IMG/VR virus record: IMGVR_UViG_3300022848_000011
Location: 21,363-85,362 of that record
DNA length: 64,000 nt
From: a virus
Reading direction: 5' to 3' (one strand)
The position numbers were made by a program, and so were the translations under genes. The notes below the pieces were generated by a model, which ran no database searches, was not told the DNA's origin, and was given only the letters and a program-made list of their open reading frames with translations. Each line of letters begins with the position of its first letter. Within the stretch, counting starts at the first letter, position 1. Shown here piece after piece: positions 8,795 through 38,499 of this stretch.

Positions 8795-11700
8795 ATGAAC
8801 AGAATATTTCCACCATCTATAAATTATCCAAATGGACTTGACAATGATTATACATTGTTCCTAGTCCACAATACTACCGAATCTGTCTTATCTGAAAATA
8901 ATTCGGCTTGGGCTTTAGAAATAAGTATCGAGCCTGTTGATCCAGACCAATTAGAAATTTGGGCAGACAATGGGTTTGCTAATTTAAATGGGGAATTATT
9001 ATATTATGATACGGTAGAAAAAAACGAATTTGGCAAAGTAATTAAATTAAAAAATTGTGCTAGAAACATAGGTGGGAAACGAACTGTTTTTCAGAAAAAA
9101 GGAACTGATATACGAAGCTATGTCGTTGCTGAACACCATAACCAATTAACTCAATCTACTATTGCTACAGAAAGATTCTTAAAAGAAATAGAAGATCAGT
9201 TATTATTATTAAATGAAGAAAATACTTGTAAAGATGATGCTTTTTGCCCAGATGTTAATTTTAATATAGAAATCAATGAAGAATTAACTAATGATTGTGA
9301 TGGAATTGTTATTGATTATACAATAAACATAGATGGTGGGTTTTCTAATTTCGAGTTAGATTTTGGAGACGGAAGATCTACAAATAATCCTACTTCTGGA
9401 TCTTATACTTTTCCTAAAAACACAGTAATTGATCCTATCATTAAAATATCTAATAATAACTGCACAATAATACAATCTCCTTTAGTAAGAAATGAATCAA
9501 ATGAACCTCAAGAACAAATTGTCAATAATGTTAATTTAGTACCAATACCACAAATACCAGATTTGCCAGCTTTAACTGTTGGAGATTTAGATGTAGCTGT
9601 ACCGGAAATAGAATTTCCACAATTTTTTGGTCCATGTATCAATTTAAATGGATTTGAAATCAATCCAATTAATATACCTAGTATAATAAGCTTTGGTTCT
9701 CTTAATATTCCTAGTATTATAAATTTTAGTCCTCTTAATATACCAAGTATAATAAGCTTTGGTCCAGCCCCTAGTTTTAGTCCAATAGGCTTTGGTCCTA
9801 TAAGCATACCAAGTGTAATAAACTTTGGTATAGCCCCTAGTTTTAGCCCAATAGGATTTGGTCCTGTAAGTATACCAAGTATAATAAGCTTTGGTCCTGT
9901 AAGTATACCAAGTATAATAAGCTTTGGTCCAGCCCCTAGTTTTAGTCCAATAGGCTTTGGTCCTGCTCCTGAATTTAGTCCGATAGGATTTGGTCCTGCT
10001 CCTAGTTTTAGTCCAATAGGATTTGGGCCTGTAAGTGTACCAAGTATGATAAGTTTTGGACCTTTGAATATACCAAGTATGATAAGTTTTGGACCTTTGA
10101 ATATACCTAGTATAATAAGCTTTGGACCTCTTAATATACCAAGTGTAATAAGTCTTACTACAGTAGATTTCCCTAGTTTGATAGAATTTGGACCTGTTGA
10201 TTTCCCTAGTATGATTAACTTTGGGCCTGCTGATATTCCTTATATAATTACATTTGGACCTGTGGAAGTTCCTAGTATTATCGAATTTGGAACTGTTGAT
10301 ATACCTAGTATTATCGAATTTGGAGAAACGAATATACCTAGTGTTATTACATTTGGACCTGTTGATATTCCTAGTATTATTATATTTGGACCTGTTGATA
10401 TACCTAGTATTATTACATTTGAACCTGTTGATATACCTAGTATTATTACATTTGGACCTGTTGACATACCTAGTGTTATTACATTTGGACCTGTGAATAT
10501 TCCAGATGAAATTACATTTGGTCCTGTGGATTATATCCCAGATGAAATTGGTTTTGGTCCTGTTAATCTTCCCAGTGAAATTGGTTTTGGTCCTGTCAGT
10601 ATTCCCAGTGAAATTGGTTTTGGTCCTGTCAGTCTTCCCAGTGAAATTACATTTGGTCCTGTGGATATTCCAGACGAAATCACATTTGGAGAAGTAAGTA
10701 TTCCTAGTGAAATCACATTTGGAGAAGTAAGTATTCCTAGTGTTATTAACTTTGGCGAGGTAGCTTTTCCTAGTGTTATTAACTTTGGCGAGGTAACTCT
10801 ACCTAGTATTATAAACTTTGGTGAAGTGAGCATTCCTAGCGAAATCACATTCGGTGAAGTAAGTATTCCTAGTGAAATTAACTTCGGTCCTGCTCCTGAT
10901 ATTGGACCTGTTTCATTTGGTCCAGCACCATCTATAAGTGTCACTATACCTGATAGTATGGATTTGAATGTTGATTGGGGGACTATACCAATAATTACTA
11001 TAACTCCAACACACATTGATCCTATACATGTAAATGTTACCTTTGATCCAATGCCTCCCATCCCTCCCATATTAATCAGTTTCACGGGAGATGCTATTCC
11101 TGTTAATGTTGATTGGGGAATTATACCACCTGTAGGGGTGGTCTGGGGTCCTACACCTACAATCGATCCTATTCAATTTGGTCCTGCTAATATTTCACCT
11201 GTTCAATTTGGTCCTGCCAATATTTCACCTGTTCAATTTGGTCCTGCTCCACCGCTTACTGTTACTTGGGGTCCTACACCGACTTTAGAATGTAACGTAA
11301 CTGTTACTTGCCCAAACTCTGCCATGGCTGCACAATCGAATAAAAATTTCACTGAAGAAGACTTTGTAGATGATTTTGAATCGATGGAAATTGAAACTGA
11401 GGGAATTGGAATACCGTCAGAGATTATTATCAGGGCTCCTAAATTTCCTGAAATAAAAATACAGCATGATATTCCAGAATTCATCGAATTAAAAGCTCCA
11501 GATTCTATAGATCTTAATGTGAAACTAGAAAGCAATTTACCTAAATCGATTGAATTGAACTCTTCGAAACTGCCCAAATCAATCCAATTATTAACAAATG
11601 GATTAGAAAAAGGAATATTACTAGATTCTTCTAATGTTTCTATTAAACTTGAGATGCCTATGGAACTTCCAAAGTTACAAATAGATACAAGTAAATTATC

Positions 11701-20916: not shown

Positions 20917-21968
20917 AGTAGATTTAATTGAATATCAAGGGGATCGAAGTTTTTTGTTTTAAGAACATATTCTCTTATCAACTTTGGATTAACTTTATTG
21001 ATAATTGAATTCCAGTCTTTGTAACCTTTCGGCGGGTTTATATATTCAATTTTATTGAACCCTAAAGATTGCATTTTTTTACCATTTTCTATTAAGGCAT
21101 CAACACCAGGACCATCGAAATCGAATGCTAAAACAGGATCATAATCTTTTAGTATTTTGAGTTGACCTTCAGATAAGTATTTTCCTCCACTCGCACAAGC
21201 CCACACACCGCATCTAAAGAGACTTAACGCATCAAACTCCCCCTCAGTCACATACACCTTAGAACCCTTCTCAGGCCAATCCGGGAAGAATAAGACATCT
21301 TCTTTAGTAACACCGCTTTCTTCCCCAGCAGCTAAATATTTTGGAGCTTTTTCATAAGAGCCAAAATATCTACCATTAAAAAAGATAAGTTTCTTATTTT
21401 TGTCATAATAAGGGATAATAATTCTATCCCGATAAAACCCTGAAGTACAAACAAAGAAAAAACTTGCTGTAAAGCCTCTAGATTTCAGATATATGTCACA
21501 TTTCCTTCGTATTGGACTAATAGTAGGTATATCACTAACTAAACAAGTTCCAGGTGGCAATTTACATTCTTTAAACTCTTTTTGTACTTTTACTTCTTTT
21601 TCGACTTGTTGATCTTGATTTAATAATTCTTGAAATCTAATTTGGAGATCATCTATTGTAGCATCTCTACAACCTAAGGTTTGTAACGCTTCCCAATAAT
21701 TACAGCCATCGACTTGCATTACTAAAGATATCAATGACCCTCTTTTGTCGGTTTTCCAACAACGAAAGACACCATGTTCTACATTTTTCTTTCCACCACT
21801 AGGATTACACCACAAGTGTTGTTTAGAATCATCACAAAACACTGAATTAATTTTTATTTCATCATTTTTAATCTTTACAGGATCGAACCTAGCGTTTGCC
21901 CATTCTAGGAATATTTCAAAAGGTATGCTCATTTTTTTCTCTTTCAGATATTTTAAAGTAAAAGTCAA
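20913..21968 (-). CDS. DNA primase (DnaG/T4 gp61-like)
   Basis: N-terminal Zn-binding region; RIIIPYY...FFNGR; Toprim VTEGEFDAL and FDFDGPG; KDWN. Likely start 21932. Confidence 0.9.
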   Translation of the reverse strand: MTFTLKYLKEKKMSIPFEIFLEWANARFDPVKIKNDEIKINSVFCDDSKQHLWCNPSGGKKNVEHGVFRCWKTDKRGSLISLVMQVDGCNYWEALQTLGCRDATIDDLQIRFQELLNQDQQVEKEVKVQKEFKECKLPPGTCLVSDIPTISPIRRKCDIYLKSRGFTASFFFVCTSGFYRDRIIIPYYDKNKKLIFFNGRYFGSYEKAPKYLAAGEESGVTKEDVLFFPDWPEKGSKVYVTEGEFDALSLFRCGVWACASGGKYLSEGQLKILKDYDPVLAFDFDGPGVDALIENGKKMQSLGFNKIEYINPPKGYKDWNSIINKVNPKLIREYVLKTKNFDPLDIQLNLL

Positions 21969-30883: not shown

Positions 30884-32008
30884 TCAATGTTGGTGGAAAG
30901 GAACATCTGGGTGACCATGATCATGAACATAATCCATTCTTTGAAAATTACTGTAATCAAATACCAGATGTTTGTCATCTTGACTAATTTCCCAAGCTAA
31001 TTCAAGTGCATAGTTAGTAATTTTTTCCATGCCTTCATAATTAATTTTATCTGCCGTGTCACTAGGAGTGTGGTAGTGGGGGTGACCACCTGTATGTAAG
31101 AAAGCAACTGGAATACCCCTGTTGTAAAAAGGTGCATGATCGCTACCACCAGAACCTCGACTCGTTATTTTCTCAGCAAAATCATACTTTTGATTCAAAT
31201 TTTCTATTATTCTTTTCAAATCTAAAGATGATTCTCCTTCATTAAAACCAACACTAAACATACCCTTACCCAACCAACCCACCATATCCATATTAACCAT
31301 AGCAACATGGGATTTAATATCAGGATTATTCATTGGAAATAAAGGTTTAGAACAGTAATAACGAGAACCTAATAAACCCATTTCTTCAGCAGAATACGCT
31401 TGGAAAACAATGGTTCTATCTGGTTTTAATTGAGAAATACCTTTAGCAACTTCTAATAATACAGCAGTTCCACTTGCATTGTCATCAGCACCAGGATGAA
31501 TCTTATTACTTGTTCTTGATCTAGAATACTGTGGCCCGTAACCAATGTGATCCATGTGCGCCCCAACAATCACTACTTTATCAGGTGATTTACTGCCTTC
31601 TATCCAACCATAAATATTTTCTGTCCATAAATCACCCATTTCACGATTCGGACCAGGATTGACTCTTCGTATAGGAATTCTTTGCCTAATTGTTTTTAAA
31701 CCATAACTCTTAAATTTGTCTTCTATAAAACTAGCAGTAAGTTTATTCCCTGTTTTACCAGACATTCTTCCTTCAAATTCATCAGAAGCTAATTTATAAA
31801 CCACATCCTTTAGATTATCTAAAGAAATTTCCTCTAAAACATCTTGAACTGTCTTGTTTTGTGGCTTTTCTGCAATTGGAGCAGTTCTTTGTAGTAATGG
31901 AATTGTTTCATCGCTTGTTTTTTTTGATTTTGATACAAAAATAATAATCGAAAAAAACAATAAACTAAACATCATCAATATTATTTTGACTTTTTTGTCT
32001 TGACTCAT
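30884..32008 (-). CDS. Membrane-anchored M28 family aminopeptidase
   Basis: N-terminal TM; GAHMDH, GADDNASG, SAEEMGLLGS, NMDMVG, SDHAPF, YHTPSD. Confidence 0.93.
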   Translation of the reverse strand: MSQDKKVKIILMMFSLLFFSIIIFVSKSKKTSDETIPLLQRTAPIAEKPQNKTVQDVLEEISLDNLKDVVYKLASDEFEGRMSGKTGNKLTASFIEDKFKSYGLKTIRQRIPIRRVNPGPNREMGDLWTENIYGWIEGSKSPDKVVIVGAHMDHIGYGPQYSRSRTSNKIHPGADDNASGTAVLLEVAKGISQLKPDRTIVFQAYSAEEMGLLGSRYYCSKPLFPMNNPDIKSHVAMVNMDMVGWLGKGMFSVGFNEGESSLDLKRIIENLNQKYDFAEKITSRGSGGSDHAPFYNRGIPVAFLHTGGHPHYHTPSDTADKINYEGMEKITNYALELAWEISQDDKHLVFDYSNFQRMDYVHDHGHPDVPFHQH

Positions 32009-32225
32009 CTTGTTCCTCTTTTGGTTTTTCGGAGTTTGCTTTTTCTTTGAAGAAAAAACCTAAAATATAATTATTGAACAAAAAAGAAATACAAATTCCT
32101 CCAATTGTTCTTAGCAGCCACCAACCAAATGATGTTGCTGTGACTGGATCAACAAATTGTTTTTCAATTTTGTGATTTTCTTTATCTTCGTTAAATTCTT
32201 CATCACTCAAATTATTAATTTTCAT
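31965..32225 (-). CDS. Small membrane protein
   Basis: Central hydrophobic segment FGWWLLRTIGGICISFLF. Confidence 0.55.
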   Translation of the reverse strand: MKINNLSDEEFNEDKENHKIEKQFVDPVTATSFGWWLLRTIGGICISFLFNNYILGFFFKEKANSEKPKEEQDESRQKSQNNIDDV

Positions 32226-32280
32226 TTATTTTTTTTGCGTTTTTACCAAATTGTGTGCTAAATAATATAAAAGGTTAATT

Positions 32281-33222
32281 ATGTCAGAATATAAAATAAA
32301 CAAAAGTTTGCAATATCCTAATGTAGAATTTCAAGATTATTACAACAAGTTCGAAACGGTTGAAGATATGCTGGCTGGTTTGGAGTGGAATGATTTTTTC
32401 TCTCACTTTTACGAAATTAGCAGAGAAGAGCAAGAAATACTAATTGGTGAATCTCTCCAAGAACTTAACATGTTCAATGAGGCAAAACAATCTGAAGAAC
32501 TTTCAAAATGCGCAAATAGTTTCAAGTATTGGTGTCATCGCTATGTTGAAATTTATCATTACAAACATGGACAAATCCCATTTATTAACTACAAATACCA
32601 AGATCGTGTAATAGAAGGTTTCGAAAACAATAAATTTAATATAGTTTCAAAATTCAGACAAGCTGGATTGACTACACTTAGTTTGTTGAAAAGCATACAT
32701 AATTGTTTATTCAAAAATGATCAAAAAATCAATATAGTATCCAGAACAGATCGTGAAAGCATTGATGCAAGTTATATTACCCAACAAGTTATGGATAATT
32801 TGCCTAAATGGATGTATGACCCAAAACAAAATAATACTTCAAAATATGAGAAAAAATTCCATACCACAAATTCTCGCATTTATTTCAATACCCCACTATC
32901 TACAATTGGACAATCTAGTACTTGCTTAATCTTCAATGAAGCAGCTTTCATTGAAGATATGGAGAAACATTGGGAAGCTATGTATCCAATTATTGCTAAT
33001 GGCAGTAGTGTACAAGTTTTTTCAAGTGTTAATGGAATAAATAGTTGGTATAACAAAATATACAAAGAAGCTATTAAAGGTAATAATCAATTTAATCCAA
33101 TTGCAGTTGACTATTGGGAACATCCTACGTTTTCAAATCCTGAGTGGGTTGAAACAGTAAAATCGAACTATAGTAAAAAAATATGGAAACAAGAATTCAT
33201 GAGAAATTCTTGCGCATACTAA
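32281..33222 (+). CDS. Truncated terminase large subunit paralog (ATPase domain only)
   Basis: Collinear with the first ~330 aa of the next gene (FKYWCHRYV, SKFRQAGLTT, EAAFIE.M..HWEAMYP, SVNG, DYWEHP). Walker B reads FNEAAF. It stops before the nuclease domain. Confidence 0.85.
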   Translation: MSEYKINKSLQYPNVEFQDYYNKFETVEDMLAGLEWNDFFSHFYEISREEQEILIGESLQELNMFNEAKQSEELSKCANSFKYWCHRYVEIYHYKHGQIPFINYKYQDRVIEGFENNKFNIVSKFRQAGLTTLSLLKSIHNCLFKNDQKINIVSRTDRESIDASYITQQVMDNLPKWMYDPKQNNTSKYEKKFHTTNSRIYFNTPLSTIGQSSTCLIFNEAAFIEDMEKHWEAMYPIIANGSSVQVFSSVNGINSWYNKIYKEAIKGNNQFNPIAVDYWEHPTFSNPEWVETVKSNYSKKIWKQEFMRNSCAY

Positions 33223-33232
33223 TGAGTATACT

Positions 33233-35062
33233 ATGTCTAAACACAAAAGCAATGAAGGACCACCAAAAGATTTAAAATACCCCACTATAGCCTTTGAAGA
33301 TTATTATCATAAATTTGAATTTGTCAAAGATATAATTAAAGATCCTGAATGGGATAAAGTATTTTCTAATTTCTACAGATTTAGTGATGAGGAAATGGAT
33401 ATTCCATGTGGCGAAACTGTACATGATCTCAACGTTTTTGAACCAAAACAACAATACCAAGAAATAATAAAATGTACTAATAACTTTAAATATTGGTGTC
33501 ATCGTTACGTGAAGATCCTTCACGCAAAATATGGCACAATACCTTTTATTATGTACAATTATCAAGAACGTGCTATTGATAATTTTGAAAATCATAGATT
33601 TAATATGATTTCTAAATTTAGACAAGGTGGATTAACTACTATTGGCGCACTCTGGGGTTTGCACAAATGCTTGTTCAGAAATGATCAACAAATCTATATG
33701 CTTTCCAAAACAGATCGTGAAGCCGTCGCAGCAGGTGATATTGTCAAAAAAGCAATGGATAATTTTCCTGAGTGGATGTATGACAAAGAACAAGCAGAAA
33801 TATCAAAACACGAAAAGAAATTTAATGATACTGCATCTAAAATTTGTTTTTATACACCCGAAGCCGCTCGGGGCAAAACCGCCACCTGTCTAATGATTGA
33901 CGAAGCAGCTTTTATTGAAAAAATGGACGAACACTGGGAAGCTATGTATCCAGTGGTATCAACTGGTGGTAGTGTTCAAGTTATATCTACAGTTAATGGT
34001 GTAGGCAACTGGTATGAAGAAACTTATAGTGAAGCTCTAGAAGGTAATAATTTCTTCAATATTATTGAATTAGATTACTGGGAACACCCAACATATGCAA
34101 ACCCTGAATGGTCTAAGGTTGCAAAAGCAAATATGGGTGAAAGGAAGTGGAGACAAGAAGTCTTAAGAGATTTCTTAGATTCAGGAAATACCTATTTTAC
34201 TTCAAATGTTATTCAAACTATAGACTTATTTACTCAGAAAATCAAACCACACAGAACGCTATTTGAAAAATGGCAAAACCCTAATTATGATAAACTAAAG
34301 TGGGAACCAGGAGCATTACATATATGGCAAGAACCTATTGAAGGACATGAATATTTACTAGCTGGTGACTGCGCAGAAGGTATAGGAGAAAATGGAGATA
34401 ATTCCTGTTTTCAGCTTATTGATATTAATCGAGTAGAACAAGTAGCTGAATTTTACAGTAACAATGTACCTCCTCACATATTTGCCCAAATAATTAACCA
34501 AATAGCACTGTATTACAATACATGTAGTGTCGTTATTGAAAATAATACTATTGGTGGTGCTGTTATAAATGTTTTACAACATGAAGTAAATTACGAAAAC
34601 ATCTATCATGAACCATTATCTAACAGACAAAGCAAGCCTGGGATAAGAATGTCCCCGCAAAATAGAAAGTTGTATCTAGAATCATTAGCCAAAAGATTAA
34701 CAAACGGTAGTTTCGTAGTTTATAGTAGAAGGTTTCTTCATGAATTAAATACATTTGTTTTTGATAATCAAAAAAACAGAGCAGAAGCACGTAAAGGAAG
34801 ACACGATGATGCTATTATAGCAATGTCAATAGCTATCTATACAAGAGATGAAGCAATAAGAGGGATGCCTGTAGGTGGTGGTGTAAGCACTACTACAAAA
34901 GATGTTATTAGTAGTAGTGTTTTCGAAGAAATCAAAAAAGAAATATTAGAAGATGATTGGGAGGATGAAGACTATGATTTTGAATCATCTTTAGAAATAG
35001 ATATACTTAGACCAATGTATGGGCAACCTCATTCAAAAATTCTTGAAGAGTTCGGGTGGTAG
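33233..35062 (+). CDS. terL: Terminase large subunit (T4 gp17-like)
   Basis: YQE adenine motif, KFRQGGLTT, MIDEAAF, ISTVNG; RNase H-like nuclease AGDCAEG...HDDAI. Confidence 0.95.
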   Translation: MSKHKSNEGPPKDLKYPTIAFEDYYHKFEFVKDIIKDPEWDKVFSNFYRFSDEEMDIPCGETVHDLNVFEPKQQYQEIIKCTNNFKYWCHRYVKILHAKYGTIPFIMYNYQERAIDNFENHRFNMISKFRQGGLTTIGALWGLHKCLFRNDQQIYMLSKTDREAVAAGDIVKKAMDNFPEWMYDKEQAEISKHEKKFNDTASKICFYTPEAARGKTATCLMIDEAAFIEKMDEHWEAMYPVVSTGGSVQVISTVNGVGNWYEETYSEALEGNNFFNIIELDYWEHPTYANPEWSKVAKANMGERKWRQEVLRDFLDSGNTYFTSNVIQTIDLFTQKIKPHRTLFEKWQNPNYDKLKWEPGALHIWQEPIEGHEYLLAGDCAEGIGENGDNSCFQLIDINRVEQVAEFYSNNVPPHIFAQIINQIALYYNTCSVVIENNTIGGAVINVLQHEVNYENIYHEPLSNRQSKPGIRMSPQNRKLYLESLAKRLTNGSFVVYSRRFLHELNTFVFDNQKNRAEARKGRHDDAIIAMSIAIYTRDEAIRGMPVGGGVSTTTKDVISSSVFEEIKKEILEDDWEDEDYDFESSLEIDILRPMYGQPHSKILEEFGW

Positions 35063-35358
35063 GTAATATGAAAAAATATGAAACAATTTTAAAACTTCTC
35101 AATGAAGTTCAAAAACATACAAAAGATTATAAAGATAAAGAAATAAGAAAAACTGTATCTAAACTTATTGAAATCGTCGAGTCCAAAACTAAAATTAAAT
35201 CAAATTATGACAAAAAAATGACTCCATTAGAGAGTTGGAAACTTAATTTAGAAACAGGTAAATTACAGCATCCAATTAGTGATGAACTTGCACAAAACGC
35301 ATTAGATAATTTAGAAAATATGATCGAAATAGAACTAAAGAAAACTTCAAACAACTAA
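35056..35358 (+). CDS. Hypothetical protein
   Basis: Short ORF after TerL; likely start ATG 35068. Confidence 0.55.
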   Translation: MVGNMKKYETILKLLNEVQKHTKDYKDKEIRKTVSKLIEIVESKTKIKSNYDKKMTPLESWKLNLETGKLQHPISDELAQNALDNLENMIEIELKKTSNN

Positions 35359-35934
35359 TACATTATTTTTTTTACAAACATAAAGACAATTTTCATAACT
35401 ATTATTACAACTTTGAATTAAACTAGATTTAACATTAAATTCTACTGAATCTATTTCAATAGGATTTAAACTAACATTGGTATTAAACATATTGTTTATT
35501 GCTGAAGTAAACTCAGGTTTAGAAAATGACGACTCAGTCAATAAAATTTTATTAATTGATTTAACTGAAATTTCCTTAATCCTTTGTATTCTGCTTTGAT
35601 AATAATCAACAGCCCTTTGGGTCGCATAAGGTTCGGAAAAAGCATCTATGATTCTAGGCAAAGCTAAACTTGGTTTAGTAATGAAATTGATCATATATAC
35701 TATATCCAAAAGAGCTTTACACCTGATGCTGGAATTGTTTAGTATTATGTCACCATATATAGCAGCAGAGTTTTTACAAGTATGATGTGTACTAAACAAC
35801 CAATCTAAATCATCAGGATGTGTATATAATGAATGGGTTGTTTGTACAGAAAACAACTCATTTTGATTCAATTGATGAATTAATTCAGAAAATTTGCTTC
35901 CTATATGTGAATTAATAAAAGTTACTCTATTCAT
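35347..35934 (-). CDS. Hypothetical protein (weak sulfotransferase-fold resemblance)
   Basis: VTFINSHIGSKFSELIHQLNQN resembles a degenerate PAPS-binding loop. Confidence 0.4.
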   Translation of the reverse strand: MNRVTFINSHIGSKFSELIHQLNQNELFSVQTTHSLYTHPDDLDWLFSTHHTCKNSAAIYGDIILNNSSIRCKALLDIVYMINFITKPSLALPRIIDAFSEPYATQRAVDYYQSRIQRIKEISVKSINKILLTESSFSKPEFTSAINNMFNTNVSLNPIEIDSVEFNVKSSLIQSCNNSYENCLYVCKKNNVLVV

Positions 35935-35943
35935 AGTGATATT

Positions 35944-38499
35944 ATGGCTTGGTGGGATATTTATAAAACATGGAACTACAACCTTAGTAGAGATCCATTA
36001 AATCAACAATCAATAGAAGATCGTGCAATTGGAGGAGGATTAACCTCTCCCGGTGGTGTTCCTGATATTCGTGACCAAAATGTTGGAGGTATGACCGATA
36101 CAAACTTCCGACAATCTAATGATTTTATCGACCTTCAAACTGTAGAAGATAGATTATCTAGATATAAAGAATACGAAAGATTATTATCAGTTCCAGAAGT
36201 CGAAATGGCATTAACTGTCATTGCTGATGAAGCCTGTATTGCAGGCAACACTATGATATCAACACTGTTTGATGGATATAGAACCATAAGTTGGTTGGAA
36301 AAACGATGGCAACAAGATCAAAAACCGTTTTTAACCTATTGTTGGGACTTTGAAAAAGAAGACTATACTCTTGACTGGGCCTATAATCCAAGAAAAGTTA
36401 AAACAGAAGAAACTGTATGGGTTGCTCTTGATGATGGAAATCATTTTGTCACCACGCTTGACCATAGAATATTACTTAGTAATCAAGAATGGAGACATGC
36501 AGGTGATCTAAGAGAAAAAGATGAACTTATCCCTTTTTACAAAATGCCACCACATCCTGAATTAAATAACATTAAACACAATCAATTTTCTAGAATACGT
36601 ACAAATAAATATGGTTGGGTCAACGAAAGACAATTTGTTGATATATGGAAAGGTCAAGAACCAGATCAAAAAACATTAGAAACTCTTAGATATGGTAACT
36701 ATATCGCAAATGGATTCACTCGTGAACAAATCGCTCACATGTTCGAAAGAGATACAAGAAGCCATAATGAATGGGTTAAGGATATAGGATTTACACATAA
36801 AGAACTTAGATGGTTGGGGAAAAAAGAAAAAACCCGAAAAGTTATTGGCGTTTTTCCTCACAAAGTATTAGACGTATATGATCTATCAGTGAAAACACAC
36901 CAAAACTTCTGTACTGATGCAGTCGTTATGCACAATTGTCAAGAAGACGATGATGGTAATTTATTCAAAATATTATCAAAAAATGAGGAAGTGGTCAAGG
37001 AATTAGAAACGATTTGCTTTGGGAAAAGATATCTCAACCTGAATAGAAACCTAAGAGGGAAGATTAAACGACTTTGCCTAAAAGGCGATCTGTTTGTTGA
37101 ATTACTTTCTGCCCCAGAAATGCCGAAAAAAGGTGTTCTGAAACTAGCAGAATTACCACCAGAAGAAATGTTTAAAATTGTTACAAATAAAGATCGAGTT
37201 GTTGAATACCAACAATCAGGTAATGGACCCGATATTGATGTTTTGATGAAATCGACAGATGATGATATCGAATTACAAAAGAGTACTGCTATTAGATTTC
37301 ATCCAAAACAAATCATTCACTTCAAACTAGGTGACGAAAAATCATTCTTCTATCCATACGGTAAATCAATAGTAGAACCAGCTAGAAGTCCTGCTCATCA
37401 ATTAAGACTCATGGAAGATGCTGTAATGGTATATCGATTGGCTAGAAGCCCAGAAAGAAGAGTTTTTTATATTGATGTTCAACAATTACCTCCATTCAAA
37501 GCAGAAGCATTTGTTAGTAGATTTAAAGATCAATTCAAGAAAAAGAAAGTTGCTTTAGATAAAGGAAAAGGAGGAGCTTCTGCTGTCGAAGAAAGATGGC
37601 ATCCACCTGCTATTGATGAAGATATTTGGTTGCCAATTCGACCAGGATCAAATACTAGAATTGAAACATTACCTGGGGCTACGAATTTAGGTGAAATTGG
37701 AGACTTAGAATATTTCCAATCTAAATTATTTACAGCATTAAATTTTCCAAAAGATTATTTTAATACTGATGATATCTCCAAAACGAGAATTACCCTTTCT
37801 TCACAAGATGCTAGATTTGCAAGGATGATAGAAAGAATACAAGGAGATGTTGCTGATGGCATCCATCAATTATGCGAAACACATTTAGAAATGCGTGGAT
37901 TTCCATATGAAATGTACAGAGATATTAAAATAAAAATGACTCGTCCATCTCCTTATAAAGAAATAAGCGAAATGGAGGTAATTAATCATAGATTAAATAT
38001 TATAGCTCAATTAAAAGGTATGATGATTATGAGTGATTATGATCTATTAACAAGATATTGGAATGCTACAGAAACAGATGCTGAAGATATAATTGCTAGA
38101 GCTAAAGCTCAAAAAATGGAAGATATGAAATTTCAAATATTAGGGCAAAATCCAGCATTATTAGGAATGGGAATACCAGGACAAGAAGGTGATGAAAACG
38201 AAATGGGAACAGGTGCTGATGGGCCAAATCCAATGTTAGGACCTACACCTGATAAACAACCAGATGGTAACCAAGAAAATAAAGAATCTCCAGATGAACA
38301 AAATATTAATCCCGATAATCCCGAAAAAGATAATTTAAATAATCAAGATACAGACTCTCAACCTAATATGGATTCAAAAGTCGAACCTTTACCAATACCA
38401 TCTGATGAAGATCTTGAAAAATATAATCTAGAATTACAAGATTATGACAGATATCAAGATGCTGAAGATATTGATTTTGGTACCGAAGAAGGATTGTAA
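35944..38499 (+). CDS. Portal protein (T4 gp20-like) with intein
   Basis: YGKSIVEPA...QLRLMEDAVMVYRLARSPERRVFYIDV...IETLPGATNLGEIGDLEYF are gp20 signatures. Confidence 0.95.
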   Translation: MAWWDIYKTWNYNLSRDPLNQQSIEDRAIGGGLTSPGGVPDIRDQNVGGMTDTNFRQSNDFIDLQTVEDRLSRYKEYERLLSVPEVEMALTVIADEACIAGNTMISTLFDGYRTISWLEKRWQQDQKPFLTYCWDFEKEDYTLDWAYNPRKVKTEETVWVALDDGNHFVTTLDHRILLSNQEWRHAGDLREKDELIPFYKMPPHPELNNIKHNQFSRIRTNKYGWVNERQFVDIWKGQEPDQKTLETLRYGNYIANGFTREQIAHMFERDTRSHNEWVKDIGFTHKELRWLGKKEKTRKVIGVFPHKVLDVYDLSVKTHQNFCTDAVVMHNCQEDDDGNLFKILSKNEEVVKELETICFGKRYLNLNRNLRGKIKRLCLKGDLFVELLSAPEMPKKGVLKLAELPPEEMFKIVTNKDRVVEYQQSGNGPDIDVLMKSTDDDIELQKSTAIRFHPKQIIHFKLGDEKSFFYPYGKSIVEPARSPAHQLRLMEDAVMVYRLARSPERRVFYIDVQQLPPFKAEAFVSRFKDQFKKKKVALDKGKGGASAVEERWHPPAIDEDIWLPIRPGSNTRIETLPGATNLGEIGDLEYFQSKLFTALNFPKDYFNTDDISKTRITLSSQDARFARMIERIQGDVADGIHQLCETHLEMRGFPYEMYRDIKIKMTRPSPYKEISEMEVINHRLNIIAQLKGMMIMSDYDLLTRYWNATETDAEDIIARAKAQKMEDMKFQILGQNPALLGMGIPGQEGDENEMGTGADGPNPMLGPTPDKQPDGNQENKESPDEQNINPDNPEKDNLNNQDTDSQPNMDSKVEPLPIPSDEDLEKYNLELQDYDRYQDAEDIDFGTEEGL
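36235..36936 (+). mobile_element. 234-aa intein in the portal gene
   Basis: Block A CIAGNT, block B TTLDHRIL, block F VYDLSVKTHQNF, block G VMHN followed by extein Cys. Confidence 0.92.

Follow-up and report, generated by a model that had tools for sequence, protein, structure and literature searches.

A tandem, nuclease-less paralog of the large terminase in a huge phage as a candidate non-catalytic partner of the packaging motor

The 64,000-nucleotide (nt) stretch analysed here, referred to as the window, is the last part (positions 21,363 to 85,362) of the 85-kb IMG/VR virus record IMGVR_UViG_3300022848_000011. In the window, the gene for the full-length large terminase (terL) was found to be immediately preceded by a second gene, which encodes a paralog of the TerL ATPase domain without the nuclease domain. 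The 85-kb record was rated 17% complete by CheckV and is therefore a partial genome of a phage of roughly 500 kb. Our comparisons suggest that the most likely role of the paralog is that of a non-catalytic partner or regulator of TerL. To the fuller reading, in which it is a selected tandem duplicate of the TerL ATPase that acts as a non-catalytic, TerL-binding modulator of the packaging motor, we give about an even chance.

The paralog (32281-33222, plus strand), a 'truncated large terminase' of 313 amino acids (37.3 kDa, isoelectric point 6.0), is separated by a spacer of 10 nt (33223-33232) between its TAA and the following ATG from terL (33233-35062, plus strand), which encodes a 609-residue large terminase of the T4 gp17 type with ATPase and RNase H-like nuclease domains. 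BLASTP aligned the paralog with the N-terminal ATPase domain of TerL at 165 of 313 identical residues (53%; 75% positives; E 1e-130), collinearly from residue 1 to residue 309 with a single 4-residue gap, and no stops or frameshifts were present in its reading frame. Both proteins exceeded the 22-bit cut-off of the Pfam family Terminase_6N (PF03237), with 26.4 bits for the paralog (residues 126-307) and 39.7 bits for TerL, and Terminase_6N was the sole Pfam family in the paralog at E <= 0.01. Terminase_6C matched TerL only (residues 379-535). The paralog stops at the boundary between the ATPase and nuclease domains, with its end about 60 residues short of where the nuclease domain of the neighbouring TerL starts. 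The paralog also matched the PHROG terminase families phrog_5989 and phrog_2 (E 1.2e-19 and 2.1e-14) and, over residues 69-276, the T4 gp17 structures (E 1.7e-15), which TerL matched at E 3e-33. These results agree with a first-pass annotation made from the bare sequence, which had proposed a tandem terminase duplication, an ATPase-only architecture with a clean stop at the domain boundary, and a collinear, diverged and frameshift-free second copy. TerL itself had 909 relatives in the protein collection, the best being 61% identical, many of them on contigs of 250-630 kb and up to 634 kb. Among GenBank phages, 2070 records matched the paralog at E <= 1e-5 in 2071 places, one record having two places.

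To place the paralog, trees of the N-terminal domain were built from hand-picked relatives. In the maximum-likelihood tree obtained with a careful search (29 rows), the paralog was the sister of its own TerL with a support of 99/98, and its terminal branch measured 1.31 versus 0.20 for TerL; a quick tree of 39 rows likewise placed it beside its own TerL. The closest sampled relatives (loci L004 and L005), which are 66% identical to the N-terminal domain of the window TerL, lacked a second copy in their 5-kb upstream flanks. Outside its own 90% cluster, the paralog had no orthologue in an index of 5.8 billion proteins. A word-indexed search at 172-548 amino acids returned only this cluster and one 36% relative, a HMMER scan of 1.84 billion representatives of 50% clusters found nothing more than 46% identical except this cluster, and two IMG/VR scans with the paralog and TerL as single queries gave no matches. 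The sister placement, the single-copy state of the closest relatives and the lack of an orthologue support a tandem duplication within a sparsely sampled lineage as the origin of the paralog, which later evolved faster than its parent.

The divergence of the paralog bears marks of constraint. Pairwise comparison with TerL gave a nonsynonymous divergence (dN) of 0.32 and a synonymous divergence (dS) of about 2.4, which is near saturation. With three outgroups, the branch dN was 0.25-0.27 for the paralog versus 0.06-0.07 for TerL, and the paralog is estimated to evolve about 4-6 times faster than TerL. If the saturated dS is assumed to be split equally, the dN/dS ratio (omega) is about 0.22 for the paralog versus about 0.05 for TerL. 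Conservation was counted over the 118 of 120 listed relatives with at least 590 amino acids, in columns filled in at least 80% of rows, which left 208 sites where the window TerL carries the majority residue. The paralog kept 61 of the 78 invariant sites, 46 of 75 sites at 90-99% conservation, 15 of 31 at 70-89%, 6 of 16 at 50-69%, and 2 of the 8 sites conserved below 50%, so that conserved sites were preferentially retained (Fisher p 3e-4). Neutral simulations that started from the TerL N-terminal domain and ran to 53% identity left none of 5000 runs free of stops under either mutation model (mean 9-12 stops). The omega of about 0.2, the preferential retention of invariant sites and the neutral runs together indicate that the paralog is under purifying selection.

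A relic duplicate drifting to loss, or an assembly artefact, would fit the absence of the paralog from the closest sampled relatives and its long branch, and terL is usually single-copy; a preprint uses it as a marker of mis-assembly. This explanation is highly improbable. Neutral decay, which the first-pass annotation had named as the outcome that would speak against a function, is contradicted by the omega, the conservation gradient and the simulations. An artefact is opposed by the recurrence of the identical gene pair: the identical 313-residue protein was found on 6 contigs from three sources (JGI/IMG, Logan and ENA), TerL was likewise counted 6 times, and a one-residue variant of the paralog was present on a seventh contig. 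Reads of the two copies are not confusable, since 47% of the residues differ. Moreover, the same arrangement was found in an unrelated contig, the 190-kb record IMGVR_UViG_3300042261_002269 (L102).

The residues altered in the paralog are clustered at catalytic positions. In its Walker A region, KFRQAGLTT (residues 124-132; 32650-32676, plus strand), Lys124 and the P-loop Arg126 are kept, and the only difference from KFRQGGLTT of TerL is one Gly-to-Ala change at a position where T4 has Leu. Besides this deviant Walker A Lys and the P-loop Arg, the paralog keeps the YQ adenine site, the catalytic Glu and the SxVNG region of the C-motif. In the Walker B strand, LIFNE (residues 216-220; 32926-32940, plus strand), the Asp has become Asn219 next to the conserved catalytic Glu220, and Ile209 (32905-32907, plus strand) occupies the position of a family-invariant Arg (TerL R213, aligned with T4 gp17 R245; TerL D223/E224 align with T4 D255/E256). 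From TerL to the paralog, LMIDEAAF thus reads LIFNEAAF and AARGKT reads STIGQS; the altered Walker B (IFNEAAF versus MIDEAAF) and the change of ARGKT to TIGQS noted at first pass are exact by alignment. The paralog was altered at 22 residues that are at least 99% conserved, with clusters in AARGK (A211S, A212T, R213I, K215Q), in Walker B (D223N) and after the C-motif (G258N, N259S). R213, K215 and D223 of TerL are invariant in all 118 full-length relatives, and all three are changed in the paralog.

The lost Arg may be a residue that acts on the neighbouring subunit. In P74-26 TerL, R139 was reported to serve as the arginine finger in trans, and R139A to abolish DNA binding and cleavage as well; R139 lies between alpha2 and beta3, where T4 was also reported to have an Arg (PMC5727402). 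The family profile aligned PEAARGK...IIDEAAF with PDNLRG...ILDEAA of the P74-26 ATPase chain 4ZNI in a weak match (E 1.6), and the aligned Arg (chain index 144; Arg-to-Glu spacing 11) would correspond to R139.

The Walker A of the whole TerL clade is deviant as well. It reads KFRQGG[L/I]TT (residues 128-136 of the window TerL, 33614-33640), with Leu or Ile at the position of T4 gp17 Lys166 and an invariant Lys six residues ahead of it (118 of 118). This form, with its Lys at the front, presumably resembles the Walker A of the lambda gpA type.

Further ATPase-only copies were found among related huge phages. We screened 145 loci with an ATPase match, some being repeated views of the same contigs, and three contigs had two ATPase-domain places, namely the window's own, L102 (also seen as L109) and the 262-kb record IMGVR_UViG_3300013121_000017 (G001). 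When 20 related huge-phage records were searched whole, a second ATPase copy was found in 3; 18 of these records are fragments whose completeness is estimated at 5-59%, one is rated 100% complete, and no estimate is available for LR756511.1. The absence from relatives that had been allowed for at first pass thus holds for orthologues and for the closest, single-copy TerL relatives, but not for analogous copies.

L102 resembles the window most. Its ATPase-only gene encodes 293 amino acids (P0185), lies 47 nt upstream of the gene for a 604-residue TerL, and is 49% identical to this TerL; its finger Arg is replaced by Pro and its Walker B Asp by Glu. The gene order is that of the window: a minus-strand open reading frame (ORF), the ATPase-only gene, terL, a small ORF, a minus-strand gene and a portal gene with an intein. 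By eye, the minus-strand ORF of L102 (365 amino acids, 8835-9932) resembles the 374-residue ORF of the window (30884-32008, minus strand), and no minus-strand ORF of about 370 amino acids was seen at that place in LR756511.1 or G001, both of which are without a tandem copy. In G001, a copy of 266 amino acids directly follows the portal gene, with the Arg changed to Cys and the Walker B DE kept. A distant ATPase-only ORF of 289 amino acids lies far from terL in the 527-kb record G015, which is rated 100% complete. This ORF and the next one (L155 1330-2199 and 2267-2782) were seen to share a near-identical N-terminus of 25 residues (MLRRD.LKIMGGAVLLPSLPAPKKE), which looks like a twin-arginine or signal-type leader and is odd for a terminase-like protein.

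The copies of L102, G001 and G015 have the same domain content as the window paralog, end at the same place just after the QE motif, and have all lost the family-invariant Arg, but they are only 28-36% identical to it. Tandem position and flanking gene order are common to the L102 and window copies, whereas in G001 and G015 the copy lies apart from terL and its Walker B DE is intact. A representative library held six more ATPase-only proteins, of 287-394 amino acids, with the same end boundary. Five of them (P0131, P0134, P0160, P0260 and P0002) are known from Logan or ENA only, and for P0272 no contig of its own was found in IMG/VR or the JGI metagenomes, where the best matches were 43% and 44%. 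Among the ten ATPase-only proteins, the finger Arg was kept in 2, versus all 118 full-length TerLs; the Walker A Lys and Arg were kept in all ten, as in all 118 TerLs, and the catalytic Glu also in all ten. The Walker B Asp was kept in 8 and lost only in the two tandem copies.

The two tandem copies appear to have separate histories. An approximately unbiased (AU) test rejected, for the domain as a whole, a joint clade of the window and L102 copies (p 1.2e-5), the group having been named after the tree was seen, and each paralog of known context clustered with, or near, its own TerL. Such clustering would arise if the duplications were independent, or if a single old one had been homogenised by gene conversion. 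In sliding windows, the window pair showed a third-position identity of 0.75 versus 0.50 overall at aligned codons of about 141-200 (paralog 32701-32880, TerL 33665-33844), with the same codon at 17 of 19 identical residues and no rise in amino-acid identity; this stretch could be an old conversion tract or a nucleotide-level constraint. In the L102 pair, the N-terminus was more alike. On the whole, the tandem copy of L102 appears to have arisen independently of the window copy.

An enzyme that is still active could be proposed from these data. An ATPase with its own job, for example as an auxiliary translocase subunit or in a separate DNA transaction, would account for the kept Walker A Lys and Arg, YQ, catalytic Glu and SxVNG, for the intact Walker B DE of 8 of the 10 ATPase-only relatives and for the purifying selection on the paralog. 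We regard this as unlikely: the Walker B Asp, invariant in 118 of 118 TerLs, is changed, AARGK has lost its invariant Arg as well as its invariant Lys, and the second tandem example, that of L102, is altered at the same two sites. In T4 gp17, substitutions of D255 are lethal.

The residue pattern fits better with a non-catalytic, TerL-like binding protein, because the cis residues are kept while the Walker B Asp and the trans Arg are lost. A pseudo-ATPase packaging regulator, as suggested at first pass, would agree with this pattern. In the mechanism that we propose, a tandem duplication in the lineage would have kept the whole N-terminal domain and dropped the nuclease. The product would retain the residues for binding nucleotide in cis (Lys and Arg of the deviant Walker A, YQ of the adenine site, and the catalytic Glu) and would be without the Walker B Asp, which holds Mg2+, and without the Arg that TerL rings would use in trans to fire the neighbouring subunit. 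It would fold like the N-terminal domain of TerL and bind TerL or the partners of TerL, docking on TerL possibly by the ring interface or by the shared N-terminal extension; an isolated terminase ATPase domain was reported to be able to form pentamers alone (PMC5727402). The paralog could then modulate how the packaging motor assembles, initiates or fires, while not itself being an ATP-hydrolysing member of the ring. A subunit that receives a finger but gives none may silence one active site in a mixed ring, or may cap assembly; alternatively, the paralog may take over a recruitment role like that of the small terminase (TerS). What was observed is the homology, the origin, the selection and the states of the residues; that the paralog binds TerL and affects packaging is what we infer. 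The loss of the same Arg and the change of the Walker B Asp to Glu in the tandem copy of L102 add support to a modulator of this kind.

Several points weigh against it. The identity of the lost Arg as a trans finger leans on the weak profile match (E 1.6) and on an inferred numbering offset, and the trans finger of T4-type TerL was itself reported to lack biochemical confirmation (PMC5727402). A Walker B Asp-to-Asn change alone is no proof of lost ATP binding or hydrolysis. No second copy was found in 17 of the 20 related whole records, and since most relatives do without such a gene, its function is dispensable or lineage-specific. Six of the ten ATPase-only proteins are without genomic context and could be halves of split terminases, and the omega values are only rough because dS is saturated.

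A broader idea is that huge phages have repeatedly and independently made a duplicate of the TerL motor into a non-firing subunit of a heteromeric motor, of which the window pair would show the first steps, with the finger Arg and the Walker B Asp gone and the Walker A and catalytic Glu intact. Such a subunit would still bind ATP and accept the finger of its neighbour but could not donate one, and might serve as a regulatory or 'special' subunit or as a substitute for TerS. We put this forward tentatively and consider it somewhat improbable.

The substitution of TerS can also be considered by itself, as a special case of the modulator reading in which the paralog would recognise phage DNA and recruit or stimulate TerL. 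The position of the gene is suggestive. In T4, gene 16 (TerS) lies directly upstream of gene 17, and the slot directly upstream of terL is held by the paralog in the window, by the tandem copy in L102 and by the truncated terminase gene of phage CBB described below. No TerS family was matched in the neighbourhood in Pfam or PHROG, and a search of the whole record with PF11053 (TerS) gave no match, nor did its controls. The three paralogs of known context are more basic than their cognate N-terminal domains (net charge -5 vs -11, +8 vs -7 and +3 vs -2), which is compatible with DNA contact (n=3). On the other side, the paralog itself matches no TerS family (Pfam, E <= 0.01), the G001 copy follows the portal gene instead of preceding terL, most relatives manage packaging with no paralog at all, and a conserved small helical ORF directly downstream of terL, which occurs in phages that have the paralog and in phages that lack it, could be the true TerS. 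A replacement of TerS is thus another explanation that we hold to be unlikely.

The small ORFs lie directly 3' of terL and encode 100-139 amino acids, at 35056-35358 in the window (100 amino acids, plus strand), 8054-8434 in L001, 6386-6805 in L090 and 12765-13127 in L102. They are syntenic and alignable in these four related huge phages, with or without a paralog, and share a C-terminal L..MI..E..K motif. The ORF of the window had no Pfam or PHROG match. We speculate from its position and conservation that it is a candidate small packaging partner or TerS.

Farther downstream, the window carries a T4-type portal gene with an intein (35944-38499, plus strand; Pfam Portal_T4 1.3e-71, Intein_splicing 3.2e-09), and the synteny is the same in relatives. 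Portal inteins were also observed in L001 (9575-12148), L090 (7476-10034) and L102 (13446-16127). By eye, the intein site (ADEAC...HNC) looks the same in all four phages, so the intein is apparently old in the clade.

Upstream of the paralog, a divergent intergenic region of 55 nt (32226-32280, plus strand) was read for expression signals. The first-pass annotation had assigned the paralog its own ribosome-binding site and an upstream TAAATA. Both are present, an AAGG ribosome-binding-like site (32271-32274) 6 nt ahead of the ATG and the TAAATA at 32259-32264, but the latter is unproven as a promoter: a promoter scan gave 22 sites versus 23.0 expected from shuffles, with none at the TAAATA. 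No terminator-like site was found in 31800-36000, and with no terminator between the genes, the paralog and terL are probably co-transcribed. No common motif was seen across the four phages upstream of the paralog, terL or portal genes.

Because the paralog mimics the ATPase domain of TerL, it could also be an anti-defence decoy or sponge that soaks up terminase sensors (Avs1-3, Upx) or binds them without triggering them, as the first-pass annotation had suggested. The paralog is a faithful copy of the domain that is reportedly recognised by EcAvs2 and Upx (PMC13601566), and its fast evolution and patchy distribution are typical of conflict genes. EcAvs2 was also described to contact the terminase-bound ATP and the Mg2+ hydration shell (PMC13601566), so the Walker B Asp-to-Asn change could alter recognition. 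However, the isolated ATPase domains of 5 of 5 tested terminases were reported to activate EcAvs2 strongly, and the ATPase-like T4 protein vs.8 to be toxic with EcAvs2 (PMC13601566); such copies therefore look like extra triggers rather than blockers. Asp-to-Ala double mutants of Walker B and the nuclease were reported to still trigger Upx in most cases. The paralog, moreover, belongs to the packaging operon, where 10 nt separate it from terL, and is not grouped with early or anti-defence genes. The published activation data thus run against the decoy, which we judge to be very unlikely.

Viral packaging motors have been treated as homomeric TerL rings that an unrelated small subunit assists. 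The TerL copies without a nuclease that occur in Rak2-like phages, in T4 (vs.8) and in the huge-phage clade of the window hint at an accessory component that has gone unrecognised. With 53% identity to its parent, the window copy is young enough to reveal in which order residues were lost, and the alteration of the same two catalytic positions in a second, apparently independent phage points to a specific selected function over drift. These copies bear on the use of terL as a single-copy marker, and also on terminase-sensing immunity, in which isolated ATPase domains are reported triggers of Avs2 and Upx.

To relate the paralog to known systems, we compared it with published terminase-like proteins. 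A 'truncated large terminase' upstream of terL was reported in Rak2-like jumbo phages, in which the gp17 domain of CBB_274, from Pectobacterium phage vB_PcaM_CBB, is incomplete (Buttimer et al. 2017, PMC5259590), and also for the Sinorhizobium phages phiM12 and phiN3 (PMC5259590; Kim et al. 2020, PMC7760394). The CBB record shows CBB_274 (235 amino acids) overlapping the start of the TerL gene CBB_275 by 14 nt; the two proteins are 21% identical, and CBB_274 has the same end boundary. Like CBB_274, the window paralog comprises the ATPase part only, is co-oriented with and immediately upstream of a full terL, stops at this domain boundary and carries catalytic motifs that are degenerate. CBB_274 represents an old copy that, by eye in the alignment, is without the Walker A Lys and the catalytic Glu, whereas the window paralog is young (53%) and keeps the Walker A Lys and Arg, the Glu and the long N-terminal extension. 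BLASTP between CBB_274 and the window paralog gave E 0.019 over 84 residues, and the window copy is the sister of its own TerL, so the two are one kind by architecture but of separate, non-orthologous origin.

T4 vs.8 (219 amino acids) was reported to resemble the terminase ATPase domain, to stand alone and to be toxic together with EcAvs2 (Evans et al. 2026, PMC13601566), and is said there to keep Walker A and Walker B. It is like the window paralog in standing alone, in belonging to a T4-type phage and in having no nuclease domain, but it is encoded far from gene 17 (record position 64253-64912), unlike the paralog at 10 nt from terL, and BLASTP detected no similarity between the two (best E 0.29).

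With the N-terminal ATPase domain of T4 gp17 (PDB 2O0H, 3CPE, 3EZK) and with P74-26 TerL (4ZNI), the window paralog shares the order of motifs, but it has no nuclease domain, and the Walker B Asp and the Arg equivalent to R245 or R139 are replaced. Both the paralog and its own TerL differ from T4 in having Leu at the Walker A Lys166 position and an invariant Lys six residues earlier. Our literature search found no description of terminase paralogs in huge phages, and passages of Iyer et al. 2021 and the HPGC preprint make no mention of them. The kind itself is already in print through the Rak2-like phages, and what is new here is an independently arisen and unusually young example of it.

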